Sequence record: SRR22947727_223
Length of the DNA: 46,281 nucleotides
Strand: one strand, 5' to 3'
Shown here: positions 1,439-35,899 of the stretch, piece after piece
Position numbering within the stretch: position 1 is the stretch's first letter
Layout: the number at the start of each line of letters is the position of its first letter
The notes under the pieces: model-generated
What the model was told of the DNA's origin: nothing
The model's database searches: none
The model's input: only the letters and a program-made list of their open reading frames with translations
Program-made: the position numbers and the translations under genes

Positions 1439-3835
1439 ATGCGTGTTTTTCTTTCCTTTTGCTGCTTGGCTATGAGTAGTTTTGTTTTTGGTCAACTCAA
1501 TTTAAACAAGACCCAATTTCAAAAATTCGATGGCTATTTCCCCTTTTATTATGACAATGACTCAGGTAAAATTTACCTAGAGGTAACGGAATTAGACAAA
1601 GAGTTTCTTTATATAAATTCTTTAAGTAGTGGTATTGGCAGTAATGATATTGGTTTAGATAGAGGTCAATTGGGCGGAGAGCGGGTAGTTTCCTTCAAGA
1701 AAATGGCCAATAAGCTCATGCTTATTCAGCCCAACCTTCAATATAGGGCCCTTACAGACAATGCCCTGGAAAAGGAATCTGTTAAGCAGGCTTTTGCTTC
1801 TTCTGTATTATTTGGTTTCCCTATTGAAAGCATATCTAACGGTAAATATATTATAGATATTACTGATTTTTTAATGCAAGATGCCCATGGTGTGAGCGAT
1901 CGTTTACAACAATCGAATCAGGGAAGTTTTACTTTAGATAAATCCAAAAGTGCTATGAATATGGCACGCACAAAAGCTTTTCCAAAAAATATTGAAATAG
2001 ATGTTATGCTCACCTTTAAGGGAAAAGCCAAAGGAAGCTATTTAAGGTCTGTGGTGCCTAGTCCAGACCTTGTGACTGTAGCACAACACCATTCATTTGT
2101 GGCCTTACCTGAATTGGATTTTGAAAAAAGAAAGTACGATCCTAGGTCTGGAGCGTACTCCTTTTCTTATTTAGATTATGCCACAGCTGTGAGTAGCCCT
2201 ATTGAAAAAAGATATATAGCCAGACATAGATTGGAAAAAAAAGACCCCAATGCTTCAGTGAGTGAAGCAGTTGAGCCTATTATTTATTATTTAGACAATG
2301 GGACTCCAGAACCAGTAAGAACAGCACTTTTAGAGGGAGGTAGATGGTGGAATCAGGCTTTTGAAGCCATAGGATACAAAGATGCTTTTCAAGTAAAAAT
2401 GTTGCCTGAAGACGCAGATCCTTTAGATGTAAGATACAATGTCATTCAATGGATTCACAGGTCTACTAGAGGTTGGAGTTATGGCAGTAACGTCTCGGAT
2501 CCTCGAACTGGAGAAATTTTAAAAGGACATGTGAGTCTCGGAAGTTTAAGAATTAGACAAGACTTTATGATTGCACAAGCGCTCAGTAAAGAACCCTTTA
2601 AAGATGGAGATGAAAACCACCAAGGCATGTTAGCTATGGCTGTTTCTCGAATCAGACAATTGTCTGCCCATGAAATTGGCCACACTTTAGGTTTTATGCA
2701 CAATTTTGCTGCAAGTGCACACCAAAAAGCCTCTGTAATGGATTACCCACACCCTCAATTCGAGCTTAAAGAAGGTGAAGTATCTTTTTCTAATGCTTAT
2801 GAAACGGGAATTGGGTCTTGGGATAAGGTAAGTGTTGCCTATTCCTACAGTGATTTTCCAGACAGTGTAAAAGATGAGCAAGCTGCTTTGAATGCTATTT
2901 TGGAAGCGGCATCGGCTGAAGGCCAAAAATACTTATCAGATTCAGATGCAAGACCAGCTGGTAGTGCCAGTGCTTTTGCCCACCTTTGGGACAATGGCGC
3001 TACTGCTGCTCAGGGATTAAATGACGTTTTGGAGGTGCGTTCTAAAGCGATTGATCAGTTTGGTATTCATAATATTCGCCAAGGAGAACCACTTTCTGTA
3101 TTAGAAGATGTGTTTGTGCCTTTGTATTTTTTTCATCGCTATCAGGCAGAGGCAGCCGCTAAAGTCATTGGTGGAATTGATTATAGCTACCAAGTAAAAG
3201 GGAGCAATCAGTCAGATGCTTATACCATTGCTGCCAAAGACCAAAAAGAAGCGCTAAGGACTTTATTACGTACTTTAAACGCTGCTGAAATGGCTATTCC
3301 GGAAGAAAAATTAACATTATTCCCTCCGAGATCTCCTTCTTATAATAGTGGTAGAGAATCTTTTAAAGGAAAAACAGGTGTGACATTTGACCCTTTATCT
3401 GCACCTGAAACTGCTGCAGACGTGACTTTAGGATTTTTGTTACACCCACAGCGGGCTACTAGATTAATTCAGCAAAAGGCGCTAGACAACAGTCAGCTAG
3501 ACTTACAGGCTGTGTTGTCTGCTTTATGGAAGGGCACTATTTGCCTAAAACACAAGGATAATTATATTCAAAATGTGCAGTTGAATATTAACTTTAGGGT
3601 GTTTACGCATTTATTGAATTTGGCCCAGCAAGAAATGGTGCATCCTCAAGTAAACGCAGTAGTTCATTCCTTTTTAAAAGAAAAGGCGGGCACATTATCG
3701 GTCTCTAAAGATTTATATGACCAAGAATTATTCAGAAGGTATGCCGCCTTCTTGAAATCTCCTGAGAACTTTAAAGTAATTCCTGCGCCAACAGTACCTG
3801 ATGGGTCTCCAATAGGAATGAATTGCTCTTTTTAA
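1439..3835 (+). CDS. Secreted zinc-dependent metalloprotease (EcxA/DUF4953-DUF5117-like)
   Basis: Metzincin motif HEIGHTLGFMHN with SVMDY Met-turn. Signal peptide MRVFLSFCCLAMSSFVFG/Q suggests a start at 1439 (ORF track gives 1403). Confidence 0.85.
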   Translation: MRVFLSFCCLAMSSFVFGQLNLNKTQFQKFDGYFPFYYDNDSGKIYLEVTELDKEFLYINSLSSGIGSNDIGLDRGQLGGERVVSFKKMANKLMLIQPNLQYRALTDNALEKESVKQAFASSVLFGFPIESISNGKYIIDITDFLMQDAHGVSDRLQQSNQGSFTLDKSKSAMNMARTKAFPKNIEIDVMLTFKGKAKGSYLRSVVPSPDLVTVAQHHSFVALPELDFEKRKYDPRSGAYSFSYLDYATAVSSPIEKRYIARHRLEKKDPNASVSEAVEPIIYYLDNGTPEPVRTALLEGGRWWNQAFEAIGYKDAFQVKMLPEDADPLDVRYNVIQWIHRSTRGWSYGSNVSDPRTGEILKGHVSLGSLRIRQDFMIAQALSKEPFKDGDENHQGMLAMAVSRIRQLSAHEIGHTLGFMHNFAASAHQKASVMDYPHPQFELKEGEVSFSNAYETGIGSWDKVSVAYSYSDFPDSVKDEQAALNAILEAASAEGQKYLSDSDARPAGSASAFAHLWDNGATAAQGLNDVLEVRSKAIDQFGIHNIRQGEPLSVLEDVFVPLYFFHRYQAEAAAKVIGGIDYSYQVKGSNQSDAYTIAAKDQKEALRTLLRTLNAAEMAIPEEKLTLFPPRSPSYNSGRESFKGKTGVTFDPLSAPETAADVTLGFLLHPQRATRLIQQKALDNSQLDLQAVLSALWKGTICLKHKDNYIQNVQLNINFRVFTHLLNLAQQEMVHPQVNAVVHSFLKEKAGTLSVSKDLYDQELFRRYAAFLKSPENFKVIPAPTVPDGSPIGMNCSF

Positions 3836-3845
3836 GCCTTGATTT

Positions 3846-4868
3846 ATGGAAATTAATTTAATCAGTGATACGGTTACTACGCCAACCAAAGGGATGTTGG
3901 CGGCCATGATGTCTGCTAAAGTTGGAGATGACGTTTTTAAAGAAGATGCTACAGTAAATGCCCTTGAAGAAAAAACAGCTGCCCTATTTGGTATGGAAGC
4001 TGCTTTGTTTTTTCCCTCTGGTACTATGGCCAATCAGACAGCTATTAAAGTGCACACACAGCCGGGAGAACAACTGATCTGTGATCATTATGCACATATT
4101 TTTAATTATGAGGGTGGGGGAGTGAGCTTTAATTCAGGCGTGTCTTGTAAACTGATTGCTGGCCAAAGGGGCATGATTACAGCAAAGCAAGTTAAGGCTG
4201 CCATTAATCCTCCTGACTTTTACCACAGCCCCTTAACTACCTTGGTTTGTTTAGAGAATACAACCAATAAAGGAGGCGGTGCTATTTGGGACATAAATGA
4301 AATGAAAGCGATTAAAGAAGTTTGTACCTCTAACGGGCTTAAATTTCATCTAGATGGTGCAAGAATTTGGAACGCACTCGCTGTGACTGGAGAAGATCCT
4401 AAACTTTACGGTAACTTATTTGACTCCATTAGTGTCTGTCTGTCTAAAGGTTTAGGCTGTCCCGTAGGTTCTGTGTTATTAGGATCTAAAGATTTTATAG
4501 CCAAAGCACTTAGGGTTAGAAAGGTATTTGGGGGTGGAATGAGACAAGCTGGTTTCTTAGCTGCTGCAGGTATTTATGCCTTAGACCATCACAGAGAAAG
4601 ACTCAAAGAAGACCATAAAAAAGCCAAAGAGATTGAAGCAATCTTATCTAAGAAAGACTTTATTTCTTCCGTATCTCCTGTAGATACTAATATCATTATT
4701 TTTGAGCTCAAAGAGTCTGTGTTAGATGCCCAGGCATTTATGGATAAAATGAATGAAAATAACATTAGATTAATCTCAATGGGATCAGGAAAGTTACGAT
4801 TGGTGACCCACCTTAATTACACCGATGAGATGCACAGCCGTTTATTGTCAATTTTAAATGGTTTTTAA
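3846..4868 (+). CDS. ltaE: Low-specificity L-threonine aldolase
   Basis: Motifs SDTVT, VGDDVF, PSGTMANQ, HLDGARIWN and PLP lysine CLSKGLG. Confidence 0.92.
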   Translation: MEINLISDTVTTPTKGMLAAMMSAKVGDDVFKEDATVNALEEKTAALFGMEAALFFPSGTMANQTAIKVHTQPGEQLICDHYAHIFNYEGGGVSFNSGVSCKLIAGQRGMITAKQVKAAINPPDFYHSPLTTLVCLENTTNKGGGAIWDINEMKAIKEVCTSNGLKFHLDGARIWNALAVTGEDPKLYGNLFDSISVCLSKGLGCPVGSVLLGSKDFIAKALRVRKVFGGGMRQAGFLAAAGIYALDHHRERLKEDHKKAKEIEAILSKKDFISSVSPVDTNIIIFELKESVLDAQAFMDKMNENNIRLISMGSGKLRLVTHLNYTDEMHSRLLSILNGF

Positions 4869-4902
4869 CCCACATTATTCATAAGTCCAATTATTTATTG
4901 GG

Positions 4903-4910
4903 TATTTTTG
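4903..4910 (+). promoter_or_regulatory. -7 promoter element for ptrB
   Basis: TATTTTTG 19 nt upstream of ATG 4930. Confidence 0.55.
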
Positions 4911-4929
4911 TGGCCTTAAATTTTTTGAC

Positions 4930-6984
4930 ATGACTTTTCCTAATACGCCTCAGGCACCAAAGAAAAATAAAACCCTCTCACATTTAGGTTACGAAAGAGT
5001 AGATCCATATTTCTGGATGAATGAAAGAGATGTCCCAGAGGTACTCAACTACCTTAAAGCGGAAAACAACTATTACGATCAGGCTACAGCCCACACAAAA
5101 GATTTTCAAGACCGTCTTTTTGAGGAAATGAAGTCTAGGATAAAGGAAGACGACAGTTCAGTGCCCTATAAGCACAATGGATATTGGTATATCACCAAAT
5201 ATGAGCTAGGAAAAGAATACCCCATTTACACCCGTAAAAAAGACCATTTGTCTGCACAAGAAGAATTGCTGTTAGACTGTAATGTATTAGCAGAAAACTA
5301 TGAGTATTTCAGCCTGGGAGGTTTCTCTGTAAGTCCAGACAATACTTTATGTGTTTTTTCTACAGACACAGTGTCTAGAAGACAGTACACTTTGCATGTT
5401 AAAAATATAATTACTGGTGCGCTGTTAACAGACAGAATTGAGAATACGACAGGAAGTGCTAGTTGGGCTGCAGACAACAAAACATTTTTCTATACATCTA
5501 AAAACGAAAATACCTTACGTTCAGAGGCAATATATAGGCATAAGTTAGGAGATGTCAGTGAAGATGTGAAGATTTATGAAGAGTTAGATGAAACTTTTAA
5601 TGCATATGTTTTTAAAACCAAAAGCAAGAAATATATTGTCATTGGATCTTCTAGTACTTTAACAACGGAATACAGCATATTTCCAGCAGACCAGCCAGAA
5701 GCTACCCCCGTTGTTTTTAGCCCTCGAACGAGAGGTTTAGAATATGATTTAAACCATTATGGAGATCACTTTTATATATTGACCAATAAAGATGAAGCGA
5801 TTAATTTTAAGGTCATGAAAGTTAATGAATCTAACACCCATATGTCTCATTGGGAGGATTTTATACCCCACAGACCTAAAGTGTTACTTGAAGACATTAC
5901 TATTTTTAAAAACTATTATATACTCTCAGAGAGGCGTCACGGTTTAAGTTGTATTCAGATTGTTCCATGGGATACTACTATACCACCTCACTACCTGCCT
6001 TTTGACAATGAAACCTACACTGCTTATGTAGGAACAAATCCAGATTTTGACTCAGAAATTTTACGTTTTGGATACAATAGCATGACTACACCTGCTAGTG
6101 TATATGATTATAATATGGCCACTAGGTCAAAGGAACTTTTAAAGCAACAAGAAGTTTTAGGAGGAAATTTTAAAGAGGATAATTATGCTTCTCAAAGGGT
6201 TTGGGCCACTGCTAAAGACGGTGTAAAGGTCCCTATTTCGTTGGTGTACCGCAAAGACACCCCTTTGGATGGAAGCAGTCCTTTGTTACAGTACGGATAT
6301 GGATCTTATGGGCATACTTCTGACCCTTATTTCTCTACTGTGAGACTTAGTCTGTTGGACCGAGGCTTTGTGTATGCTATTGCGCATATTAGAGGTGGTG
6401 AATACTTGGGAAGACCTTGGTATGATGACGGTAAATTGCTTAGTAAGCGCAATACTTTTACAGATTTTATAGCCTGTTCTGAATTTTTAATTTCAGAAAA
6501 ATTCACTGCTGCTAAGGGTTTGTTCGCCTATGGCGGATCTGCTGGAGGACTATTAATGGGTGCTGTGATGAATATGGCCCCACACTTATACAAAGGAATT
6601 ATAGCAAGTGTACCATTTGTAGACGTTGTCACTACCATGCTAGACAGTAGTATTCCCCTGACTACAGGGGAGTATGACGAATGGGGTAATCCTAATGAAG
6701 AAAATTATTACAATTATATGATGTCTTATTCTCCATATGACAATGTTAAGCCACAAGACTATCCGAATACATTAGTTATCACAGGCTATCATGATTCACA
6801 AGTACAGTATTGGGAGCCAGCCAAATGGGTGGCAAAATTAAGGGATTTAAAAACCGACCATAATATATTGTTATTTAATACTAATATGGAGGCAGGACAT
6901 TCAGGCGCTTCAGGTAGGTTTGAGGCATTGAAAGAAGTTGCCAAAGAATATGCCTTTATTTTAGATTTGGCTCAGAAAATCTAA
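4930..6984 (+). CDS. ptrB: Oligopeptidase B (S9A, protease II)
   Basis: DPYFWM, GGSAGGLL (catalytic Ser), HDSQVQYWEPAKW (Asp) and AGHSG (His); 684 aa. Confidence 0.93.
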   Translation: MTFPNTPQAPKKNKTLSHLGYERVDPYFWMNERDVPEVLNYLKAENNYYDQATAHTKDFQDRLFEEMKSRIKEDDSSVPYKHNGYWYITKYELGKEYPIYTRKKDHLSAQEELLLDCNVLAENYEYFSLGGFSVSPDNTLCVFSTDTVSRRQYTLHVKNIITGALLTDRIENTTGSASWAADNKTFFYTSKNENTLRSEAIYRHKLGDVSEDVKIYEELDETFNAYVFKTKSKKYIVIGSSSTLTTEYSIFPADQPEATPVVFSPRTRGLEYDLNHYGDHFYILTNKDEAINFKVMKVNESNTHMSHWEDFIPHRPKVLLEDITIFKNYYILSERRHGLSCIQIVPWDTTIPPHYLPFDNETYTAYVGTNPDFDSEILRFGYNSMTTPASVYDYNMATRSKELLKQQEVLGGNFKEDNYASQRVWATAKDGVKVPISLVYRKDTPLDGSSPLLQYGYGSYGHTSDPYFSTVRLSLLDRGFVYAIAHIRGGEYLGRPWYDDGKLLSKRNTFTDFIACSEFLISEKFTAAKGLFAYGGSAGGLLMGAVMNMAPHLYKGIIASVPFVDVVTTMLDSSIPLTTGEYDEWGNPNEENYYNYMMSYSPYDNVKPQDYPNTLVITGYHDSQVQYWEPAKWVAKLRDLKTDHNILLFNTNMEAGHSGASGRFEALKEVAKEYAFILDLAQKI

Positions 6985-6999
6985 GTTAAAAAAAAACAT

Positions 7000-7007
7000 T
7001 AAATTTG
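7000..7007 (+). promoter_or_regulatory. -7 promoter element for the cysteine-synthase-family gene
   Basis: TAAATTTG in the 64-nt intergenic gap. Confidence 0.55.
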
Positions 7008-7048
7008 CTGTGTATTTTTACTAGAATACCTGAATCAAAAACAGTTAC

Positions 7049-8092
7049 ATGCATAAAAAGATACATGCTCACAACAGTATCCTGCCCCTTATAGGAAAAA
7101 CACCGCTTGTACAACTTCAAAAAACCGTTAGTGGTTTTGATGGCGAATTTTACGCCAAATTAGAAGCTTTTAATCCCGGCCATTCTGCTAAAGATAGAAT
7201 TGCATACCATATTATTACTATAGCAGAGGAAAAGGGTTTATTGAATCCAGGAGACACTATTATAGAAACTACCTCAGGAAATACAGGATTTAGCGTGGCT
7301 ATGGTGAGTGCTATAAAAGGCTATAAATGTATTTTAGCAGTGAGTTCTAAATCTTCTCCAGATAAGATAGACATGTTAAGGGCTATGGGTGCTGAGGTTC
7401 ATGTTTGCCCAGCCCACGTTAGCGCAGACGATCCAAGATCTTATTACGAGGTAGCAAAGACCATTCACAATAACACCCCAAATTCTATTTATATTAACCA
7501 GTATTTTAACAGCCTTAATACAGAGGCTCATTACCGCAGTACGGGTCCAGAAATATGGGAAGACACCAATGGGCAAATCACTCATTTGGTAGCTTGTAGC
7601 GGGACTGGGGGAACTATTTCTGGGACGGCTCAGTTTTTAAAAGAGCAGAATCCGGCTATTAAAGTGATTGGAATAGATGCATACGGGTCTATTTTAAAAG
7701 GCTATCATGAGACTGGTGAAATTAATCCAGAAGACATTTTCCCTTATAGGATAGAAGGCTTAGGGAAAAACCTAATCCCCACAGCCACTGATTTTAATGC
7801 CATTGATTATTTTATAAAAGTGACCGATCATGAAAGTGCCCACACAGCAAGGGAAATTTCTAAAACGGAAGGTATTTTCGCAGGATACACCTCTGGTGCA
7901 GCCCTTCAAGGTGTTAAACAACTTCAAGCTTCCGGTACCTTTGATAAAAATGCTAAGGTTGTTGTGATATTTCCTGATCACGGATCAAAATATATGAGTA
8001 AAATTTACTCTGACGAGTGGATGTCTGCACAAGGCTTCCTAGAGGAGCCACATGTATTGAAAGAACAAAAGACCACACTGCAGTCCCCTTAA
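7049..8092 (+). CDS. PLP-dependent cysteine synthase/CBS-family enzyme; probable cysteate synthase (CapA-like)
   Basis: NPGHSAKDR (PLP Lys), [14 protein letters not shown]; no C-terminal CBS domains. The specific call comes from its position directly upstream of a cysteate acyltransferase-like gene. Confidence 0.75.
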
Positions 8093-8161
8093 ACCATAAT
8101 TAAATTTAATTAAGTACAGACACAGGCGCTAAATAATTGGGCTGTCTTGTGAAAAATTAAT

Positions 8162-8169
8162 TACTTTTG
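8162..8169 (+). promoter_or_regulatory. -7 promoter element for the AOS-family gene
   Basis: TACTTTTG 19 nt upstream of ATG 8189. Confidence 0.55.
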
Positions 8170-8188
8170 TAGCTAGAAAAAAACACGC

Positions 8189-9448
8189 ATGAGAGATCTT
8201 TTCGAAAGAATTAAAGAAAATAAAGGCCCATTAGGAAAATGGGCTTCACAGGCAGAAGGTTATTTTGTATTTCCTAAGCTAGAGGGACCTATTTCCAATA
8301 GAATGTCTTTCAGAGGAAAAGAAGTCATTACCTGGAGTATCAATGATTATTTGGGTTTGGCTAATTTACCAGAGATTAAAGCAGTAGATGGTGCTGCAGC
8401 GCTAGAACATGGTGCTGCTTATCCTATGGGGGCTAGAATGATGAGTGGTCACACTGACTTTCACGAGCAATTACAAAATGAATTGGCTGAATTTGTAGAA
8501 AAAGAAGCCACTTATCTTTTAAATTTCGGTTATCAGGGTATTATGTCTACTATAGACGCCTTGGTTTCCAAGGACGACATTATAGTGTATGATGTAGACG
8601 CTCACGCTTGTATCATAGATGGGGTTCGCTTGCACATGGGTAAAAGATTTACTTTCAAGCACAACGATATTGAGAGTTTAGAAAAGAATTTAGAGCGTGC
8701 TACAAAGATGGCAGAACAAACTGGTGGAGGAATCTTAGTGATTTCAGAAGGTGTGTTTGGTATGAGGGGAGAGCAAGGAAAGCTAAAAGAAATTGTAGCC
8801 CTTAAACAAAAATTCAACTTTAGATTATTAGTAGACGACGCCCACGGTTTTGGTACCCTAGGAAAGACAGGTGCTGGAGCAGGTGAAGAACAAGGCATAC
8901 AGGCAGACATAGATGTTTATTTCGCTACTTTCGCAAAATCTATGGCAGGTATTGGTGCATTTATTGCTGCAGACAAAGAAATTATTGACTATTTGAAATA
9001 TAACTTGCGTTCGCAAATGTTCGCGAAGTCGCTTCCAATGATTTACGTTAAAGGCGCTTTGAAGCGTTTAGATATGCTTAGAACCCAACCAGAGCTCAAG
9101 GAAAATTTATGGCGTAACGTAAATGCGTTGCAATCGGGTCTAAAAGCACAAGGCTTTGACATAGGTACTACCACTAGTTGTGTTACCCCTGTGTATTTGA
9201 ATGGAAGTATACCAGAGGCTATGGCCTTGGTAAAAGACCTTAGAGAAAACCATGGTATTTTCTGTTCTATAGTAGTATATCCTGTAATACCTAAAGGTTT
9301 AATTCTTTTGAGATTAATTCCAACTGCAACCCATACACAAGAAGATATAGACCTTACATTAACCGCTTTCTCCTCAATAAGAGAGCGTTTAGAGAATGGA
9401 ACGTATAAAAGACTTTCTGCAGCAGTGAGTGCTGCAATGGGAGAGTAA
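8189..9448 (+). CDS. Alpha-oxoamine synthase family; probable cysteate-C-fatty acyltransferase (SulA/CapB-like, sulfonolipid synthesis)
   Basis: NDYLGLAN, HACIIDG, VDDAHGFG and ATFAKS PLP-Lys motif. The N-terminus (GYFVFPKLEG) resembles, from memory, Bacteroidota cysteate acyltransferases more than BioF, Kbl or SPT. Confidence 0.8.
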   Translation: MRDLFERIKENKGPLGKWASQAEGYFVFPKLEGPISNRMSFRGKEVITWSINDYLGLANLPEIKAVDGAAALEHGAAYPMGARMMSGHTDFHEQLQNELAEFVEKEATYLLNFGYQGIMSTIDALVSKDDIIVYDVDAHACIIDGVRLHMGKRFTFKHNDIESLEKNLERATKMAEQTGGGILVISEGVFGMRGEQGKLKEIVALKQKFNFRLLVDDAHGFGTLGKTGAGAGEEQGIQADIDVYFATFAKSMAGIGAFIAADKEIIDYLKYNLRSQMFAKSLPMIYVKGALKRLDMLRTQPELKENLWRNVNALQSGLKAQGFDIGTTTSCVTPVYLNGSIPEAMALVKDLRENHGIFCSIVVYPVIPKGLILLRLIPTATHTQEDIDLTLTAFSSIRERLENGTYKRLSAAVSAAMGE

Positions 9449-9478
9449 TTATTTATATATTAGGAAGTGATTTTTCTA

Positions 9479-9514
9479 AAAAAAAGCCTGATAGGAAAAC
9501 TATCAGGCTTTTTT
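9479..9514. terminator. Bidirectional intrinsic terminator between convergent genes
   Basis: Perfect 10-bp stem AGCCTGATAG-gaaaa-CTATCAGGCT flanked by an A-run and a T-run. Confidence 0.85.
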
Positions 9515-10631
9515 ATAATATTTTTTTATAGGTTCTCCTGCGTTTGTGCACTTTTGGATCAAAAGCACTCCATAAATTCTTTATGGCTATATTTTCCTCT
9601 AGTTCAGGGGTTCTAATACATTTCTCAATGCCCTTTTTGTTACAGGCATTCCAACATTCATGGAACAAGATGGCTGTAAGTCCTTTGTTTTGATATTTTG
9701 GGTGGACCCCAATAAGGTAAAAAATAATGTCTTTAGATTTTCTTCTCGCTTGTAGTAAGTGAAATAATCCAAAGGGAAACAAACGTCCATTTGCTTTTTG
9801 CAAGGCTTTTGAAAAGGAAGGCATTAGAATCGCAAAGGCCACCAAGTTATCTTGCTCATCTAAAACAAATTTTATGAATTCAGGATTAATAAAAGACAGG
9901 TATCTCTTTGTAAAAAAATCTTTTTGCACCTCTGTTATAGGTACAAAAGAGGATAAATTTGCATAGCTCTCATTGAATAAATCAAACATTTTATTTGCGT
10001 AAGGTAAAATGTCCTTGGTCTTAGTGAAATTGAGTGCTTTAAGTTTATAACGCCTTTTGATTAGTTCCTGCGCTTTATTAAAAAGACTTGGGTCTATATT
10101 GCTAAATGGAAAGATATTTTCCATGTATTCTTTTTCCTTGACAAATCCTAAAGATTCAAAATGTGCTGCGTAATAGTGGTGGTTATACCATGTAATCATA
10201 GTCCCTATGTGATCAAAGCCTTCAATAAGGCAACCTACCTTGTCTAAGTTAGAAAAACCTACTGGACCCTCCATGTAAGTTAATTCGTATTCACGACCAA
10301 TCTCGGCTACTTTTTCGATGAGTGCTTTAGAGACCGCTTTATTGTCTATGAAATCCATCCAACCAAAGCGCATTTTCTTTATTTTTTGTTCTTTTACCTC
10401 AATCCAGTTGATCATTGCAGCCACCCTGCCTACAATTTCACCATCCATATATGCCAAGAAAAAACGTGCTTGAGCAGTTTTAAAAACAGGATTAATTGAT
10501 GGGTCAAAAACCTCCATTTCATCTTTAATAATAGGGGGTACCCAATAAGGATTGTTTTTGTATAAAGAGAATGGAAAACAAACAAAATCTTTGATTCCTT
10601 TCTTACCAATGGCTTCTCTAATTTCTATCAT
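9513..10631 (-). CDS. Tandem-GNAT N-acyltransferase of the YghO/bacterial ceramide synthase (bCerS)-like family
   Basis: Motifs FPFSLYKNNPYWVPP, GRVAAMIN, RFGWMDFID, EGPVGFSNLDKVGCLIEGFD, WYNHHYY; C-terminal acyl-CoA motif IGVHPKYQNKG. Confidence 0.7.
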   Translation of the reverse strand: MIEIREAIGKKGIKDFVCFPFSLYKNNPYWVPPIIKDEMEVFDPSINPVFKTAQARFFLAYMDGEIVGRVAAMINWIEVKEQKIKKMRFGWMDFIDNKAVSKALIEKVAEIGREYELTYMEGPVGFSNLDKVGCLIEGFDHIGTMITWYNHHYYAAHFESLGFVKEKEYMENIFPFSNIDPSLFNKAQELIKRRYKLKALNFTKTKDILPYANKMFDLFNESYANLSSFVPITEVQKDFFTKRYLSFINPEFIKFVLDEQDNLVAFAILMPSFSKALQKANGRLFPFGLFHLLQARRKSKDIIFYLIGVHPKYQNKGLTAILFHECWNACNKKGIEKCIRTPELEENIAIKNLWSAFDPKVHKRRRTYKKIL

Positions 10632-10678
10632 ATATAATTTTTGACTCCAATTAAATGAGTTTTATGATTCATCATATG

Positions 10679-11563
10679 CTAATGTTTGTCTAAGCGATAT
10701 GAAAAACCTAACCCAATGATTTCCCTTGAAGGTTTATTTTGAAAGTTTATTCCAGTATACAGGTCTAATTGTAGGTTCTTTCTATATAAGAAAGCCCCTC
10801 CTGTTCTGATGATTTGCTCATTGTAGTTTGGTAATATACTGTATTGCCCTTCCACAAATACACTCCATTTTCTTTTTATAGCATAAGAAAGAGAGGCTAT
10901 AACTGTTTTCTCTGCCAAGGCTTCAGATCCAATAAAGTCATAAATTCCATTGAGTATTAAAACCATTTTTGGTGTTAAATGGCTTTGAGTAACTAGCATG
11001 ACTCTTGGGGCTATAGAAGGGTTATTTATTAGGTATGGGCTACTTTTTAGACCTATATTAGCACCAGCATATAGCGCTATAGCGGGTAAGATATTTCGCC
11101 ATCTAAAGCCATTATTTTTCTTCCAACTATAGACGTTAATGGGTCTATTATCAGGATTTTTAAAGGGATCAAACAGCATGATTTTTGCCCCAATTCTATT
11201 TGACGTGAATCCTTGATCTATACCAATTTTACCACCAGGACTAGGAGAAAATTCCATGGTATAAGAACCCTCGTATATAAGCTCTAGGGCTTCTGAAAAT
11301 AAGCCCACTCTTACAGCCAAGTTTCCATTATTAAAAAGGGATTCTGACTGTAAAGCTTCTCCTCTTAAGCGGTCTACACTAAAACCACTTTCTATCTGAT
11401 ACACCCGCTTACCCACACTGTAAGCACCTGTGCTATTTCCTGGCTTGTTGGAATTAATAATATCTGTATACTGTGAAAAACCACAAATGCTGAACAGAAA
11501 ACCTAGGATGAATAAGCTCATTTTAAGAATTAATGGGCTTTGAATGATAGGTTTTTTATGCAT
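10679..11563 (-). CDS. Outer-membrane beta-barrel 'transporter' (COG4313/PF13557-like)
   Basis: Signal peptide ending GFS/Q, N-terminal plug-like NSNKPG..YSVG..QIESG, alternating beta-strand pattern and C-terminal GLGFSYRL. Confidence 0.6.
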   Translation of the reverse strand: MHKKPIIQSPLILKMSLFILGFLFSICGFSQYTDIINSNKPGNSTGAYSVGKRVYQIESGFSVDRLRGEALQSESLFNNGNLAVRVGLFSEALELIYEGSYTMEFSPSPGGKIGIDQGFTSNRIGAKIMLFDPFKNPDNRPINVYSWKKNNGFRWRNILPAIALYAGANIGLKSSPYLINNPSIAPRVMLVTQSHLTPKMVLILNGIYDFIGSEALAEKTVIASLSYAIKRKWSVFVEGQYSILPNYNEQIIRTGGAFLYRKNLQLDLYTGINFQNKPSREIIGLGFSYRLDKH

Positions 11564-11612
11564 TTTAAGATTATTTTAATTCCACACAAGCCTTAGTGCG
11601 GTTGTAGAATTG

Positions 11613-11620
11613 TATTTTTG
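11613..11620 (+). promoter_or_regulatory. -7 promoter element for the DUF4834-yfhO-GT4-flippase operon
   Basis: TATTTTTG 19 nt upstream of ATG 11640. Confidence 0.55.
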
Positions 11621-11639
11621 GATAAATTTAATAAAGATA

Positions 11640-11888
11640 ATGGGTTTTTTAAGTACACTTCTCTATATACTCTTGGGGTTTTATGTTTTTAAATGGCTTT
11701 TGAGGTTATTTGCCCCTAAAATCATGGCATTTGCGTTAAAAAGATTACAGAAAAAAATGACTGAATCCTTCACTGGTTTTGGAGAAAACCAAGGATCAGC
11801 ACCTAAGCGGGATACGTCAAAAAAGCCGCCTATCACTAAAGAAAAAACAACTGTTGGGGAATATATAGATTTTGAAGAAATTGAATAA
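11640..11888 (+). CDS. Small membrane protein (DUF4834-like)
   Basis: N-terminal TM helix and C-terminal VGEYIDFEEI. ATG 11640 preferred because the TTG at 11610 lies upstream of the -7 element. Confidence 0.7.
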   Translation: MGFLSTLLYILLGFYVFKWLLRLFAPKIMAFALKRLQKKMTESFTGFGENQGSAPKRDTSKKPPITKEKTTVGEYIDFEEIE

Positions 11889-11896
11889 CTTAGGGC

Positions 11897-14419
11897 ATGA
11901 ATAATTTTATTGACAAAGGGATGTTATTTAGCATCTTAAAAGGGCTTGGGGTACTATTTCTCTTTTCGATTGTTTCTGTTTCTTTTTTCTATCCTGTTTT
12001 GCAAGACAAGCAAATAGAACAATCAGATATAGTTCAATATACAGGAATGGCCAAAGAGCAAAATGACTTTAGGTCACAAGCAGGAGCGGAGCCTTATTGG
12101 ACCAACAGTGCTTTTGGGGGAATGCCTACCTTTCAGCTAGGGGCACAATTCCCGTATAATTTTATAAAATCACTAGACAGGGCCATCCGTTTTCTTCCTA
12201 GACCGGCAGATTATTTATTCCTTTATTTTATAGGTTTTTATTTACTGCTCTGCAGCCTTAAAATTGATTATAGAATAGCGATTTTAGGTGCTTTAGCCTA
12301 CGGTTTTTCTACTTATTTTATTATAATATTAGGGGTAGGACACAACGCCAAAGCCCATGCTTTGGGCTATATGCCCATGGTTTTGGCTGGGATTTTATGG
12401 GCATTTGATAAAAAATATTGGTTTGGATTTGGGGTAACAGCCCTTGCTATGGGATTAGAAATTGTAGCCAACCATGTTCAAATGACTTTTTACTTTATGC
12501 TATTGGTTATCATTCTAGGAATGGTTTTCTTATGGTTTTCTTATAAAGAAAAACAACTCAAATCATTTTTTAAAACAGTGGGAATATTGTTTTTTGCAGT
12601 ACTGCTGGGTATTGGGATGAATGCTTCCATGCTACTTTCTACTAAGGAATATGCAAATTGGAGTACCAGAGGCCCCTCCCCACTCAGTGTTGCGCCTGAC
12701 GGCAGCCAAAAAGCCGCTAGTTCAGGACTGGATAAAGACTATATTACCTATTATTCTTATGGTCCCTTAGAGTCATTAAATTTGATGGTACCAAGGCTTA
12801 CAGGTGGCTCATTTAAAGAGTCTCTTGGCAAAGATTCAAACACTTATGCGTTTTTAACTGCCCAGGGTGTTTCTACTACCAATGCATTGGATTTTTCTAA
12901 CAATCTCCCGTTGTACTGGGGGCCACAACCCCCAACTTCTGGGCCAGCTTACCTGGGTATCACTGTAGTTGCCTTATTTTTCATAGGTTTTTTACTTTAC
13001 AACAATAGGCTGCGTTGGGTGTTTTTAATCGGGGCATTATTTACCCTAATGCTGTCTTGGGGTAAGTTTTTTATGCCACTTACAGACCTGATGATTGATT
13101 ATTTTCCCTTGTATGACAAATTTAGAGCAGTCTCATCAATTCAAGTAATTGTGGCACTTTGTGTGCCTGCATTAGCTAGTATTGGTTTAAGCCAATTATT
13201 AGTGAATAATGGCATTAAAGAATTAGATAAGTTAAAAGCGGTCAGACTTGTTGCTATTATTCTTGCGACATTATTAACATTTATATTTGGGGTGAGTTTC
13301 ATACTAGATTATCAAGGGAACTCAGACCCTCAATTGGCCGCCATGTATGGCGATGCACTTTTAGAGGTTATTCAAAAAGACCGAGCTTATGCCTTGAGGT
13401 CAGACCTGATAAGATCCTTTCTATTGCTTTCAGTACTCCTCGGTGGTTTATGGTGGGGAATTAAAAAACATTGGAATCTACCCAAAACACTTACTTTAGC
13501 AGCTATTGTTGTTCTCATAGATTTAATAGGTGTAGCTAAGAGGTATGTAAATGCAGATAATTTTGTTTCTGCAGCAAAAGTTAATAAACCATTTACGGCC
13601 AATGCCATAGATAAAGAGATTTTAAAAGACACCACTGTTTACCGTGTATATGACATGTCTGAAGGCGTTAACGGCGCAAGAACTTCCTATTTTCATAAAT
13701 CATTGGGAGGTTATCATGCTGCTAAACCTGCCGCAATAGAAGATCTTTTTGAATTTCACATTTATCAAAGTCATTTGGAAATTTTACATATGTTGAATGT
13801 GAAATACGTTATTCAGCCTTCTGAATCTGGCACCCCAAGTTTGGCAATTAATCAAAATGCGAATGGGAATGCTTGGTTTGTAAAAGAATTGGTAGGAGTG
13901 AAGGACCATAACGATTGGTTACTAGGACTTAATGCTTTAAATACAAAGTCTCAAGCGAGCCTACTTTTAAGTGATATAGCACTTCTAAAAGAAAATGGTT
14001 TGCTTCAATCTAATCCTATTAATGGAGCCTATTCTATTGAATCCTTAACGGAGGATAATTTATTGAATATTTCTCAAAATGATCAAATTAATAGCCCGCA
14101 GATTGACTTAGTTTTATACAGTCCCAATCGTATTATATACGAATCCAATCGATCGGACAGAGGCTTTGCCGTCTTTTCTGAAATGCATTACCCGTCTGGT
14201 TGGAGCGCAAGGATAGACGGGCAGCTAGTGCCCATACTTAAAGTGAACTATGCTTTAAGGGGAATAGAGGTACCTAAAGGATCTCATGAAATTGTTTTTG
14301 AATATACACCTGAGGTAGTTGATCAAGGCAGTAAAATTGCCCTTTTTAGTTATGTTTTATTTGTATTGTTCATAGGTCTGGGGTTTTATAAGATTTATAA
14401 TATAAAACCTTCGCCATAG
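11897..14419 (+). CDS. YfhO-family polytopic membrane protein (GT-C glycosyltransferase-like)
   Basis: QSD after TM1, PYWTNSAFGGMP, many TM helices, C-terminal FSEMHYPSGWSARIDG...NYALRG. Confidence 0.82.
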   Translation: MNNFIDKGMLFSILKGLGVLFLFSIVSVSFFYPVLQDKQIEQSDIVQYTGMAKEQNDFRSQAGAEPYWTNSAFGGMPTFQLGAQFPYNFIKSLDRAIRFLPRPADYLFLYFIGFYLLLCSLKIDYRIAILGALAYGFSTYFIIILGVGHNAKAHALGYMPMVLAGILWAFDKKYWFGFGVTALAMGLEIVANHVQMTFYFMLLVIILGMVFLWFSYKEKQLKSFFKTVGILFFAVLLGIGMNASMLLSTKEYANWSTRGPSPLSVAPDGSQKAASSGLDKDYITYYSYGPLESLNLMVPRLTGGSFKESLGKDSNTYAFLTAQGVSTTNALDFSNNLPLYWGPQPPTSGPAYLGITVVALFFIGFLLYNNRLRWVFLIGALFTLMLSWGKFFMPLTDLMIDYFPLYDKFRAVSSIQVIVALCVPALASIGLSQLLVNNGIKELDKLKAVRLVAIILATLLTFIFGVSFILDYQGNSDPQLAAMYGDALLEVIQKDRAYALRSDLIRSFLLLSVLLGGLWWGIKKHWNLPKTLTLAAIVVLIDLIGVAKRYVNADNFVSAAKVNKPFTANAIDKEILKDTTVYRVYDMSEGVNGARTSYFHKSLGGYHAAKPAAIEDLFEFHIYQSHLEILHMLNVKYVIQPSESGTPSLAINQNANGNAWFVKELVGVKDHNDWLLGLNALNTKSQASLLLSDIALLKENGLLQSNPINGAYSIESLTEDNLLNISQNDQINSPQIDLVLYSPNRIIYESNRSDRGFAVFSEMHYPSGWSARIDGQLVPILKVNYALRGIEVPKGSHEIVFEYTPEVVDQGSKIALFSYVLFVLFIGLGFYKIYNIKPSP

Positions 14420-14445
14420 CTAATTATTGTTCAATGAAGTATTAA

Positions 14446-15780
14446 ATGGAAGAAACTAAAGATAATAAGGCTAGTGTCAATGCCAATCAAAAGGTATTGG
14501 TGATAGCTTATTACTGGCCTCCAGCTGGTGGCCCTGGCGTACAGCGTTGGTTTCATTTTGTAAAGCACCTGCCGTCATTTGGCATAGCACCAGTGGTTTA
14601 TGTTCCTGAAAATCCACAATACCCAATGGTAGATCTCAGCCCAAAAGAAGCCCTACCTAAGGAAGTAAGCCTGATTAAAAGACCCATTTCCGAACCCTAT
14701 AAATGGGTTTCTTGGTTGTTTAAAAAAAAGACCCTTCAATTGAGTCAAGGTTTGATTCAAGAAAACAAACCAGGTTTATTAGAACGTTTTATGCGATTTG
14801 TAAGGGGTAATTTCTTTATTCCAGACGCAAGAGTTTCTTGGGTAGCTCCTTCTGTAGCTTATTTATCTTCCTATATAAAGAAGCACAATATAGACACTGT
14901 AATATCTACTGGTCCTCCACATAGCATGCATCTTATAGCCAACGAATTGGTTAAAATCACCACAAATCTTAAATGGATTGCAGACTTTAGAGACCCTTGG
15001 ACCAACATTGGTTATCACAATGATCTGTATATGACACCATGGGCACAGAAGAAACATTTAAGGCTTGAAAGTGCCGTTTTGCAAAATGCACATACGATTT
15101 TAACGACCAGCTTTACCACTAAAGCCCTTTTTTCTAAAAAAACTGCTACACCAATTGAAGTCATTACCAATGGGTTTGAACCTTTTGTATATTCAGAAAA
15201 GATACAGCCTGAGGAAAATAAATTTAGCCTGGTGCATATTGGGTCTTTACTCTCTAAGAGAAACCCCAAAATATTATGGGAGGCCATAGGGGAATTGGTT
15301 GTGGAAAATAAGGAATTTGCGGCTCAACTCAGTTTAGATTTTGTTGGAATAGTGAGTAAGGAAGTTAAAGCCTCTATGGCCAATCATGGCTTAACACCAT
15401 ATTGTAATTTTCACGGATATATTCCTCATGATGAAGCAAGAAAATGCCAATTTAAAGCCCATTTGTTGCTGCTTATTGAAATAGACTCTGAGGCACACAA
15501 AGGAATTATACCAGGAAAAGTCTTTGAATACCTCCAATCTTTGCGGCCTATATTAGCCATTGGTCCAAAAGATTGGGATGTAGCACAGCTACTTCCTGAA
15601 AATAATTCAAATGCCCTTGGGACTTATCAAGATAAGGCTTTGATTAAATCGTTCATACAGAATAGATTTAATCATGGAATAGAAATTTTAGCTGCATCAG
15701 ACCCAGCCATAAGTAAATTTGAGCGTAAAAATTTAACTAGGGCATTGTCCAAAATAATAAAAAATTTGAGGAGGTCTTAA
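14446..15780 (+). CDS. Glycosyltransferase family 4 (GT-B)
   Basis: IAYYWPPAGGPGVQR, STGPPHSMH, ADFRDPW and PGKVFEYL motifs. Confidence 0.85.
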   Translation: MEETKDNKASVNANQKVLVIAYYWPPAGGPGVQRWFHFVKHLPSFGIAPVVYVPENPQYPMVDLSPKEALPKEVSLIKRPISEPYKWVSWLFKKKTLQLSQGLIQENKPGLLERFMRFVRGNFFIPDARVSWVAPSVAYLSSYIKKHNIDTVISTGPPHSMHLIANELVKITTNLKWIADFRDPWTNIGYHNDLYMTPWAQKKHLRLESAVLQNAHTILTTSFTTKALFSKKTATPIEVITNGFEPFVYSEKIQPEENKFSLVHIGSLLSKRNPKILWEAIGELVVENKEFAAQLSLDFVGIVSKEVKASMANHGLTPYCNFHGYIPHDEARKCQFKAHLLLLIEIDSEAHKGIIPGKVFEYLQSLRPILAIGPKDWDVAQLLPENNSNALGTYQDKALIKSFIQNRFNHGIEILAASDPAISKFERKNLTRALSKIIKNLRRS

Positions 15781-15781
15781 T

Positions 15782-17242
15782 ATGGGGGTAGTGGTGAGGC
15801 AATCGATACAAAATACCATTAGCACTTATTTGGGCTTTGGACTAGGGGCCATAAACACCTTGGTATTATACACCCGTATTTTACCCGTGTCATCTTATGG
15901 GCTTTTATCCATTCAGCTCTCAGTGGCTACTTTGTTATTACCTTTATTTCTTTTTGGACTCCCTAATACCATTATTAAATTTTATAATAAAAATGCGTCC
16001 GCTGAAGAGTCTGCTAGACTCAACGCTTTTTCGTTGTATTTCCCTTTAATATTTATCTTTTTCTCCTTTGCTTTTGTACTTATTTTTAAGTTAGGGGTAT
16101 TTCCATTTTTACTTCAAAAATATGCTTATGTGGCACCTTATGCATGGCATATTCTTGGTATTGGAATTGGTATGACTTATTTTGAAATTGCTTATGCTCA
16201 AGCTAGGGTAGTTTTAAAGACTGCTTTTGGTAACATCCTTAAAGAGATATTTCACAGACTTTGTATTGCAATAGGTCTTTTGGGACTTTATTTTGATGTG
16301 CTAACACTAGAACAATTCTTTGTGTTACTGGTGGGGGTACATTTTTTAAGGGCGTTAGTGATGTATGTTTATCTTTGGCGTTATTGTGATATCTCTTTTT
16401 CTTTTAGACGTCCAGAGAAGTTAAAATCTTATTTAAATTACAGTTTGTTTATGTTCTTAGGGGGTACTGCGGCGGTAGTCATTTTAGAAATAGACAAGCT
16501 TATGATTTATACTTTTGTCAATATTGATCAAGTGGCTTTTTATACAGTTGCTGTTTTTATGGCTACCATAGTTGGTGTTCCAGCTCGTTCTATGTATCAA
16601 ATTACTGCACCACTTACAGCTAGATTACTTCATGAGAGTGATTATAAAGGCCTACAATCACTCTACAAACAAAGTTCATTGAATTTAGGGATGGCAGCCG
16701 GAGGTATTTTATTGCTTTTGGCCGTAAATTTAGAGACCATATACAAGTTTATTCCGCAAGCCTATGGAGGCACCACGGTCTTGGTGTTGTTAATTGGTTC
16801 TAGTAAATTTTTTGACGCATTGCTGGGAAATAACAATGCCATTTTATTTAACTCTCCCTATTATAAAAGTATTCTGCGATTTGGCGTCTTTTTAGCTGTA
16901 ATGACGGTAGTATTAAATTATTTTTTCATTCCTAAATTTGGCATAAAAGGAGCTGCAATAGCTTCTTTTCTAGCCATTAGCCTCTACGACACCGCCAAAG
17001 TGATTTATGTTAATATGAAGTATAATATGCAGCCTTTTAGCAGAGGAACCGCTTACTTACTTATAATTATTATAACTTCTTTTGCTTTGGCCCAATGGGT
17101 TCCTGATATAGAAAATAGGTACCTGTCTCTTGCAGTAAACACCCTTTTTACAGCTGTTCTATATATAGGACTACTGTATCTCTCAAAAATGTCAGAAACT
17201 TTTAATGGTCTTGTGAATAGGGGTAAAAGGATGTTGTTTTAA
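15782..17242 (+). CDS. Wzx/MOP-family oligosaccharide flippase
   Basis: About 12-14 hydrophobic segments, IDKLMI..VAFY and LNYFFIPKFGIKGAAIA motifs. Confidence 0.82.
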   Translation: MGVVVRQSIQNTISTYLGFGLGAINTLVLYTRILPVSSYGLLSIQLSVATLLLPLFLFGLPNTIIKFYNKNASAEESARLNAFSLYFPLIFIFFSFAFVLIFKLGVFPFLLQKYAYVAPYAWHILGIGIGMTYFEIAYAQARVVLKTAFGNILKEIFHRLCIAIGLLGLYFDVLTLEQFFVLLVGVHFLRALVMYVYLWRYCDISFSFRRPEKLKSYLNYSLFMFLGGTAAVVILEIDKLMIYTFVNIDQVAFYTVAVFMATIVGVPARSMYQITAPLTARLLHESDYKGLQSLYKQSSLNLGMAAGGILLLLAVNLETIYKFIPQAYGGTTVLVLLIGSSKFFDALLGNNNAILFNSPYYKSILRFGVFLAVMTVVLNYFFIPKFGIKGAAIASFLAISLYDTAKVIYVNMKYNMQPFSRGTAYLLIIIITSFALAQWVPDIENRYLSLAVNTLFTAVLYIGLLYLSKMSETFNGLVNRGKRMLF

Positions 17243-29682: not shown

Positions 29683-30279
29683 ATGTCCTATACCCATTTA
29701 GATTCATACGATGCCCCAATTACTGAAAGTGTTAAAAAAAATTATGACCTCATATTAAATGCCATAGGAGAGGACTCCTCTAGAGAAGGCTTGCTTAAAA
29801 CACCTGAGAGAGCAGCTAAAGCCATGCAGTTTTTAACCCAAGGTTATGACCAAGACCCTCAAGCTATTCTTAGAGGTGCAATGTTTAAGGAAGATTATGA
29901 TGACATGGTGATTATCAAAGACATTGAATTGTACTCTATGTGTGAGCACCATATGCTGCCTTTTTTTGGTAAAGCGCACATTGCATATATTCCTAATGGA
30001 CATATAGTTGGATTAAGTAAGATTCCAAGAATAGTAGATGTTTTTGCAAGACGTCTTCAGGTACAAGAACGACTCACACATGATATACTTGAGTGCATTA
30101 ATACAACACTTTCTCCAAAAGGAGTAGCCGTTGTAATAGAGGCCTCACACATGTGTATGATGATGCGTGGCGTTCAAAAACAGAATTCTGTCACAACAAC
30201 ATCAGGATTTAGAGGCTTGTTTGAAAAAACTGCCACTAGAAATGAATTTATGAAGCTTATTAGCAGCAGTTTATCTTAG
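29683..30279 (+). CDS. folE: GTP cyclohydrolase I
   Basis: [36 protein letters not shown] and HMCMMMRG. -7 TAAATTTG at 29641-29648. Confidence 0.96.
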
Positions 30280-30398
30280 GTTAAAAAGTTATTGTAATGA
30301 TCTTGGTTTAAATTTTTACAATCCCTAGCCTCTTTTTAAAGTGTTAAAGTATGGACTTATACTTGTTGTATTATCCTAAAAATTAATAATTTAGTTGA

Positions 30399-34614: not shown

Positions 34615-34950
34615 CTATTTGAATAAAAAACCCAAACCCATCCGTTTGAGCATTTTCTTTTCAAAATTCCAAAAGAACTTAAATTGACCAAACAATCCTC
34701 CAAACGCTACTAATAGCACTTGATAAATAGGGAAGATAATTAAGATCCTCATGGCCCAATAAAACACCATGGTATACCAGTGGTCTTCAAACGCGTGACG
34801 CTCGAGTCCAAACAGCTCTAAAACAGGTCTAGCGAGTTTTAATGCGCTACTCCCAGTAATAGAAAACACAATGAAAATCACGACCAGTGCTCTGTTGGAA
34901 GAAACCGCCCATTTGTCTTTTAATTTAGAAAAATAGGAGGGTTTATGCAT
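34615..34950 (-). CDS. Small membrane protein (DUF6787-like)
   Basis: IFIVFSITGSS, IFPIYQVLL and GQFKFFWNFEKKMLKR. Start (34950 or 34956) overlaps the serA stop. Confidence 0.7.
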   Translation of the reverse strand: MHKPSYFSKLKDKWAVSSNRALVVIFIVFSITGSSALKLARPVLELFGLERHAFEDHWYTMVFYWAMRILIIFPIYQVLLVAFGGLFGQFKFFWNFEKKMLKRMGLGFLFK

Positions 34951-35896: not shown

Positions 35897-35899
35897 TTA

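Follow-up and report, generated by a model that had tools for sequence, protein, structure and literature searches.

A tandem-GNAT gene convergent with capA and capB as a candidate capnine N-acyltransferase gene of Flavobacteriaceae

The sequence record SRR22947727_223 provided a stretch of 46,281 nucleotides, here called the window, and a core of three genes at 7049..10631 was analyzed as a possible locus for sulfonolipid synthesis. Two pyridoxal phosphate (PLP) enzyme genes lie on the plus strand: capA, coding for cysteate synthase (7049..8092, 347 amino acids, aa), and capB, coding for a cysteate-C-fatty acyltransferase (CFAT) of the sulA type (8189..9448, 419 aa). They converge on a minus-strand gene for a tandem-GNAT acyltransferase (9513..10631, 372 aa), a candidate capnine or 3-ketocapnine N-acyltransferase. 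The spacer between the stop codons of capB and the GNAT gene measures 64 bp and carries a hairpin (9480..9514, not assigned to a strand) with a 15-pair stem, preceded by an A-run and followed by a T-run, which was taken as a shared bidirectional intrinsic terminator. Its folding energy is -26 kcal/mol (z = -6.26), and none of 200 shuffled sequences folded as well. An earlier note, made from the sequence alone, had described two PLP genes converging on a tandem-GNAT gene across a shared terminator, and this layout was confirmed by the hairpin and by the open reading frame (ORF) coordinates, which match exactly. The note had also seen no reductase gene, and Pfam analysis likewise revealed no short-chain dehydrogenase/reductase (SDR), reductase or other obvious ketoreductase gene among the window's 40 ORFs.

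The product of capA is a PALP-fold enzyme (PF00291, 266.5 bits). It scored 617 bits on the NCBIfam equivalog NF053679 (CysteaSynCapA, 'cysteate synthase'; cut-off 600), with residues 3-330 aligned to positions 2-329 of the 329 in the profile, and it stayed far below the cut-offs of the NCBIfam cysteine-synthase, CBS and SbnA models. The product of capB is an alpha-oxoamine synthase (PF00155), which matched the solved CFAT of Capnocytophaga ochracea (PDB 28eh) end to end over residues 1-419 with 706.8 bits and the Alistipes SulA (PDB 7u7h) with 563.6 bits, compared with 228.9 bits for the best serine palmitoyltransferase (SPT; 3a2b) and 194.9 bits for Kbl (1fc4). The NCBIfam models for SPT, Kbl and BioF all remained below their cut-offs. 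The available text of a structural CFAT paper from 2026 (PMC13692747) lists 17 residues around the PLP-cysteate adduct in the C. ochracea enzyme. When residues were numbered from the 1-419 to 1-419 match with 28eh, the window protein was found to be identical at all 17 (N52, G81, A82, F113, G114, Y115, H139, C141, E187, D216, F245, T247, A249, K250, M277, F278 and K280). At the level of sequence, the two PLP genes can thus be assigned firmly to CapA and CapB, and not to CysK or to Kbl, BioF or SPT, in agreement with the earlier note. That note had allowed that the alpha-oxoamine synthase might group with Kbl/BioF or use serine; since all 17 cysteate-site residues are identical and the CFAT scores exceed those of SPT and Kbl, neither is predicted. 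Apart from this, two CapB ORFs in other genomes are longer than the usual ~415 aa, one of 518 aa (L071 of G040, 7968-9524) and one of 596 aa (L072 of G008, 7455-9245). Additional N-terminal sequence, a gene fusion or simply an in-frame start codon further upstream could account for the extra length.

The GNAT protein is only weakly recognized by sequence. Its match to PF00583 reached 30.7 bits and covers residues 243-337 in the C-terminal half; Pfam matches were limited to Acetyltransf_1, Acetyltransf_7 and Acetyltransf_10, no NCBIfam family passed, and a sequence search of the PDB at E<=1 gave marginal unrelated matches only. A fold was predicted by AlphaFold2 with an alignment of 90 rows, composed of the window protein, 2 of 120 listed homologs, 84 of 150 listed relatives and 3 proteins from fetched loci. 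The model has a pLDDT of 95.7 and a pTM of 0.91. Its best PDB neighbours in Foldseek are the tandem-GNAT proteins 2wpw, 5kf1 and 7q3a (probability 1.00, TM 0.58-0.69), followed by MshD (1ozp/2c27); over the solved tandem GNATs including MshD the TM ranges from 0.56 to 0.69, at sequence identities of 10-14%. The tandem-GNAT architecture named in the earlier note is therefore borne out by the model and its top structural matches. The C-terminal domain possesses a CoA-type motif, Q314-N-K-G317-L-T (QxxGxT). Its G317 is one of 19 positions whose conservation reaches 90% or more in each of the two groups of the family described below; others among them are G68, R69, G122, P123, Y149, Y153, Y154, G282 and N347. 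No signal peptide was apparent.

To place the protein within its family, 1.84 billion cluster representatives were searched, and 5548 relatives were obtained at E<=0.001 and 556 at E<=1e-30. Genomic loci were fetched around strong matches (40), around weaker matches beside SPT-like genes (20) and around the sole matches of some CapB-positive genomes (6). A maximum-likelihood tree was constructed from 78 proteins, representing all members in the fetched loci, 11 of 80 loci from named species and the window protein. The tree distinguished two groups separated by a split with an SH-aLRT of 100, with 25 rows in group I and 53 in group II. NCBIfam models matched none of the clades.

Group I members are 28-33% identical to the window protein, and 19 of their rows come from the SPT-adjacent set of loci, the 20th locus of which (L185) falls in group II. 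In 19 of these 20 loci the member follows the SPT-like gene, in 18 on the same strand and immediately downstream. The usual gap in group I is less than 100 bp, with L190 as an exception at 4.5 kb. In 14 of the 20, a reductase gene of the epimerase/dehydratase family either adjoins the SPT-like gene in divergent orientation or lies no more than three genes away. By coordinates, more than 40 adjacent SPT-like/GNAT pairs are spread over many coded families of a sample of 401 genomes. Group I also contains a clade D of six long-branch rows from CapB-positive genomes lacking an SPT-like gene; it provides the sole family member of G040, G084, G160 and G176, and G136 contributes two of the six rows. 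The six neighbourhoods of clade D showed no widely common partner gene.

Group II comprises the window protein, all members from Flavobacteriaceae and proteins about 40% identical from many other families. Long-chain-base genes accompany it as well. At L044 the order is SPT, GNAT, epimerase-type reductase and a DGC-domain protein, and the SPT of this locus scored 673.8 bits on NCBIfam NF047600 (cut-off 640) and 512 bits against the Sphingobacterium SPT (PDB 8guh). At L046 and L185 the order is SPT, reductase, GNAT, SDR, FabA-like protein and ketoacyl synthase (KAS). L049, L067 and L068 possess a family 2 glycosyltransferase gene together with GNAT, in some cases an SDR, a FabA-like gene and a KAS gene. 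These glycosyltransferases also match Pfam Glyco_transf_21 at 53-57 bits (cut-off 21.7), which we take to be the ceramide glucosyltransferase family. As a separate observation, inositol-1-phosphate synthase and nucleotidyltransferase genes lie just upstream of the SPT-reductase-GNAT-SDR-FabA-KAS-KAS operon of L046 (G216, 3647-12938), which looks like a cluster of the inositol-phosphoceramide type. Outside the Flavobacteriaceae, the neighbours of group II genes are mostly not conserved.

The set of SPT, the acyltransferase bCerS (bacterial ceramide synthase) and the reductase CerR is 'often found clustered' according to the available text of PMC11334938, and this trio of bacterial ceramide synthesis is also described in PMC11087976 and PMC9304779. 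In the SPT clusters, the GNAT relatives occupy the position of bCerS. Clustering of SPT and GNAT is not universal, because in five complete genomes of family f24 (G071, G091, G099, G123 and G127) the SPT-like gene and the group I-like GNAT gene lie ~1 Mb apart; ceramide genes in Bacteroidota are likewise not universally clustered, as stated in the part of PMC11334938 available. The relatives of f24 are named Chlorobiaceae, so the 401-genome 'phylum' sample includes Chlorobia and other classes. The earlier note had called the GNAT ceramide-synthase-like. This term is upheld by gene context, that is by the operons with SPT and reductase genes in both groups, and not by direct comparison.

Co-occurrence was then examined across the 401 genomes. 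The CapB search gave 152 matches at E<=1e-100, the SPT-like search with the SPT of L044 gave 310 matches at E<=1e-95, and a match at E<=1e-5 was counted as a member of the GNAT family; the counts were collated by hand and the genomes are not phylogenetically independent. The genome-wide statements rest on relatives of the window, of which the nearest sampled is G001. A family member is present in 384 of the 401 genomes. It was found in 376 of the 384 genomes with a CapB or an SPT-like gene, compared with 8 of the 17 with neither. All three genes are missing from nine genomes, namely all three of f9, all five of f23 and G208. Genomes with CapB only possess a member in 68 of 74 cases, and two genomes with an SPT-like gene (G039 and G331) have no member at E<=1e-5. 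In the Flavobacteriaceae (coded family f1), CapB is present in 29/29 genomes, an SPT-like gene in 0/29 and the GNAT in 27/29, as a single member in 26 of these 27. Since f1 genomes possess CapB and lack the SPT-like gene, a capnoid base is the only long-chain base they can make.

The gene order in this family was assessed in the best 80 loci from named species, all of them Flavobacteriaceae and not independent of each other. Close homologs of the GNAT (63-95% identity) all belong to this family, including Sediminicola, Maribacter, Flagellimonas, Arenibacter, Kordia, Cellulophaga and Flavobacterium. In 38 of the 80 loci capB is convergent with the GNAT gene at a distance of 300 bp or less, in 11 it lies at 301-1500 bp and in 9 at 1.5-6.5 kb; in 12 no capB occurs over at least 7 kb, and in 10 the flank was too short for assessment. 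Thus capB lies within 6.5 kb of the GNAT gene in 58 of the 70 assessable loci, and among the coded f1 genomes the two genes are convergent within ~0.8 kb in 17 of 29. At the named Flavobacterium loci the two genes converge with 0.1-0.9 kb between them. Because this proximity recurs across the named loci, the arrangement is no chance neighbourhood. A second lineage, the genus g105 of f31 (G169, G097 and G233), possesses a group II member ~7 kb from a CapB-like gene.

Three lines of evidence led us to read the GNAT as a capnoid N-acyltransferase. Both branches of its family are repeatedly encoded with a long-chain-base synthase and a reductase, genomes that cannot make a long-chain base mostly lack the family, and the Flavobacteriaceae, for which the capnoid base is the only option, retain a single member whose gene is in most cases a neighbour of capB. 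On this evidence the balance tips slightly towards the window gene encoding a capnine or 3-ketocapnine N-acyltransferase. In the proposed pathway, CapA would make cysteate, from which CapB would form 3-ketocapnine by condensation with a fatty acyl thioester. The GNAT, acting in the cytoplasm, would add the amide-linked fatty acid to capnine or 3-ketocapnine and so give N-acylcapnines of the sulfobacin type, and the ketoreductase for the capnoid base would be encoded outside the window. The acyl donor, held by the C-terminal GNAT domain, may be a thioester with a long acyl or 3-hydroxyacyl chain. Which molecule accepts the chain, which one donates it and whether this happens before or after ketoreduction are inferences. 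As to the donor, group II genes of four lineages are followed by FabA-like, KAS and SDR genes, which hints at a dedicated thioester carrying an acyl or possibly a 3-hydroxyacyl chain, and the available text of PMC9304779 states that sulfobactins arise by acylation with acyl-ACP or 3-hydroxyacyl-ACP (ACP, acyl carrier protein). Concerning the order, acylation before reduction was proposed for Caulobacter in the accessible part of PMC11087976, and free capnine together with CapC, as described in the accessible part of PMC9304779, suggests acylation after reduction.

Several observations weigh against the capnine assignment, and most of them favour another explanation. In this explanation, the GNAT would N-acylate some other amine-bearing envelope lipid or precursor together with the outer-membrane, YfhO-like and flippase-like genes on its other side, and its adjacency to capB would be inherited gene order devoid of functional meaning. 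Directly upstream of the GNAT gene, with a gap of 47 bp, lies a gene for an outer-membrane beta-barrel protein of 294 aa (10679..11563, minus strand; PF13557, 92.5 bits), and this is its probable partner in co-transcription. Beyond it a divergent conserved block (11610..17242, plus strand) contains a small ORF, a YfhO-like membrane protein (11897-14419, with a C-terminal match to PF09586), a 444-aa protein with no Pfam family and a flippase-like protein of the Polysacc_synt family (15782-17242, PF01943); gene clusters 2, 3, 5 and 6 of the block recur in 7 to 10 sources, the window included. The GNAT and capB genes are convergent and do not form an operon, and this orientation together with the strong terminator between them implies that they are not co-transcribed. 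Of 76 named loci that could be assessed, 72 have the PF13557 gene directly upstream of the GNAT gene, in the same orientation and no more than 450 bp away. In ten f1 genomes in which the GNAT gene lies apart from capB, the outer-membrane gene is still directly upstream in all ten, and in nine the pair is also flanked by the YfhO-like gene in divergent orientation. Because these neighbours persist where capB is elsewhere, the stable unit is the YfhO-like gene divergent from the outer-membrane-GNAT pair, against which capA-capB abut tail to tail. The junction of the GNAT gene and capB is broken repeatedly, with insertions or loss in many species. In G092, locus L089 (6797-13100) shows threonine aldolase, oligopeptidase B, capA, capB, the outer-membrane gene, a small ORF and the YfhO-like gene, which is the order of the window with the GNAT gene missing. 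At this locus only 48 bp separate capB from the outer-membrane gene, and G092 has no clear family member elsewhere. In the synteny survey proposed in the earlier note, capB is frequently near the GNAT gene in Flavobacteriaceae, and the PF13557 gene is the steadier partner.

The distribution across genomes adds to these objections. Eight genomes possess a family member with neither synthase gene (G032, G120, G168, G103, G191, G355, G246 and G119). Three CapB-positive genomes whose completeness is given as 100% (G116, G100 and G364) show no member even with the family HMM, G092 and G144 have marginal partial HMM matches only, and G328 had no member in the sequence search at E<=1e-5. Outside f1, no member was detected within ~8 kb of capB at 20 loci from 10 families (HMM, E<=1). 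At one CapB locus, L082 of G108 (5258-9221), an SPT-like gene and capB are convergent and 1.5 kb apart, with a 379-aa gene outside the GNAT family between them. Many families lacking CapB (f8, f22, f25, f27, f32 and others) also possess group II proteins, with E-values of 1e-75 to 1e-96, and since group II is so common in CapB-negative families, it is not capnine-specific. On the other side, the family tracks the long-chain-base synthases as counted above, both of its groups occur in operons with SPT-like genes, the outer-membrane gene adjoins the GNAT gene at none of 30 loci outside f1 (L041-L070; tblastn, E<=1e-10), and G092 has the outer-membrane gene with no GNAT gene beside it. An acyltransferase for another envelope lipid is the main rival to the capnine assignment and, on this evidence, appears a minority prospect. 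The closest solved structures raise a different objection, as they are tandem GNATs using acetyl-CoA, and nothing in the analysis points to a long-chain pocket. The protein might accordingly be a conventional N-acetyltransferase that uses acetyl-CoA to modify a small soluble compound such as an amino sugar, an antibiotic or a thiol precursor, as indicated by the functions of its top Foldseek neighbours (5kf1, glucosamine; 2wpw, clavulanate pathway; 7q3a, MAB_4324; MshD) and by Pfam matches confined to acetyltransferase families. This is improbable, given the low identity to those structures, none of which was recovered by sequence at E<=1, and given that family members recur in operons with genes for SPT-like, reductase, KAS and FabA-like proteins, which points to lipid chemistry. 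Databases offer yet another name. Close homologs from Flavobacteriaceae (66-70% identity) are often called 'GTP cyclohydrolase' by their sources, and the ESM Atlas yielded no cluster names other than 'GNAT' and 'GTP cyclohydrolase'. No GTP cyclohydrolase family of Pfam matched at E<=10, the fold is that of a tandem GNAT and the true folE of the window lies at 29683-30279, so this function was ruled out, with a probability close to nil; the name looks like a widespread propagated mis-annotation.

The N-acylation step put forward in the earlier note is partly supported; it gains from the family and SPT context, from co-occurrence and from the elimination of other bases in f1, and loses from the convergent orientation, the outer-membrane partner and the CapB-positive genomes that have no member. 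A wider version of the capnine N-acyltransferase proposal has about an even chance of being right. In this version the tandem-GNAT family would be the long-chain-base N-acyltransferase of Bacteroidota and Chlorobia. Group I, encoded behind SPT, would lead to lipids of the dihydroceramide type, group II including the window gene would contain the fourth sulfonolipid enzyme in Flavobacteriaceae, and natural losses such as those in the Flavobacteriaceae genomes G092 and G116 would mark species making only free capnine.

Some other genes of the window touch on lipid or cysteate metabolism. The genuine GTP cyclohydrolase I gene (PF01227, 259 bits) is followed by a gene of the fatty-acid-hydroxylase family (PF04116, 288 aa), the two spanning 29683-31265, and this hydroxylase may be relevant to envelope lipids with hydroxylated acyl chains. 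Genes for a D-2-hydroxyacid dehydrogenase (serA-like) and a class-V aminotransferase (serC-like) lie side by side on the minus strand at 34943-36964, 25 kb from capA. This pair would provide O-phosphoserine, on which cysteate synthase is reported to act.

Gliding Bacteroidota carry sulfonolipids in their outer membrane, and these lipids also act as signals in choanoflagellate rosette induction, modulation of gut TLR4 and antagonism of the von Willebrand factor receptor. The bioactive forms are N-acylated, and the enzymes named in the literature available reach only capnine. The published pathway consists of CapA/Cys, CapB/CFAT/SulA and CapC/KCR, and a system with CFAT and KCR has been reconstituted in E. 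coli (PMC11211663); the accessible text of a 2023 review, mLife 2024 and Nat Commun 2024 ends at capnine or at three enzymes. The accessible part of the mLife paper gives a four-step path with three enzymes found, and the genome mining of Nat Commun 2024 covered CYS, CFAT and SDR only. The terms N-acyl, GNAT and ceramide synthase do not occur in the available portion of PMC13692747. Among searchable full-text papers, none was found in which a GNAT or bCerS is connected with capnine or with sulfonolipids; subscription papers and supplements lay outside this search, and an assignment may exist there. Within that scope, the view of the earlier note that capnine N-acylation has no firm assignment holds. 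A conserved candidate gene makes the last sulfonolipid step directly testable. If the assignment is true, heterologous production of sulfobacins would come within reach, sulfonolipid producers could be recognized in genomes with greater precision, and one acyltransferase family would serve both sphingoid and capnoid bases.

Compared with the characterized systems, the window CapA and CapB are orthologs of the enzymes in the CapA/CapB/CapC pathway of C. ochracea and O. rhinotracheale, of SulA in Alistipes and of Cys/CFAT/KCR in C. gleum. The adjacency of capA and capB is the same as in C. ochracea, where their accessions are consecutive (ACU93374 and ACU93375; PMC12927429). In contrast, the GNAT is no part of the published CapA/CapB/CapC pathway, and the window lacks a gene of the CapC/KCR type. 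The solved tandem GNATs, namely CBG (2wpw), a glucosamine N-acetyltransferase (5kf1), MAB_4324 (7q3a) and MshD (1ozp/2c27), likewise consist of two fused GNAT domains within ~320-340 residues. They use acetyl-CoA on soluble substrates, whereas the window protein is ~40 residues longer and its family occurs in lipid-gene contexts.

GlsB is a hemolysin-like protein of the Acetyltransf_5 family. It and OlsF are Bacteroidota N-acyltransferases of amino-acid lipids that join a (3-hydroxy) fatty acid to an amine and thereby form an outer-membrane lipid (PMC10191378, in the part available), as proposed here for the GNAT, but they belong to other protein families and act on glycine or ornithine instead of a long-chain base. 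The FemAB_like family PF04339 had also been considered as a candidate family for bCerS. It did not match the window protein at E<=10 and passed its cut-off in none of 10 genomes of the phylum; its Caulobacter matches, among 14 control genomes, are uninformative on CCNA_01212. The bacterial ceramide synthase itself is a GNAT, as the earlier note had also stated. In Caulobacter, bCerS (CCNA_01212/CC_1154) works with Spt and CerR as an N-acyltransferase on the long-chain amino base delivered by an alpha-oxoamine synthase, and the same role is proposed for the window protein. It is described as cytoplasmic and devoid of transmembrane segments in the available text of PMC11087976, comparable to the window protein with its lack of an apparent signal peptide. 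Encoding together with spt and cerR, a feature of bCerS, is absent from the window and from f1 and is seen only in relatives, at L044, L046, L185 and the 19 of 20 SPT-adjacent loci. The likeness to bCerS is known from gene context, not from sequence, and the window protein would acylate a sulfonated base (capnine or ketocapnine). The GNAT is thus proposed to be a ceramide-synthase-like acyltransferase serving a sulfonated base, which would not be surprising in principle.

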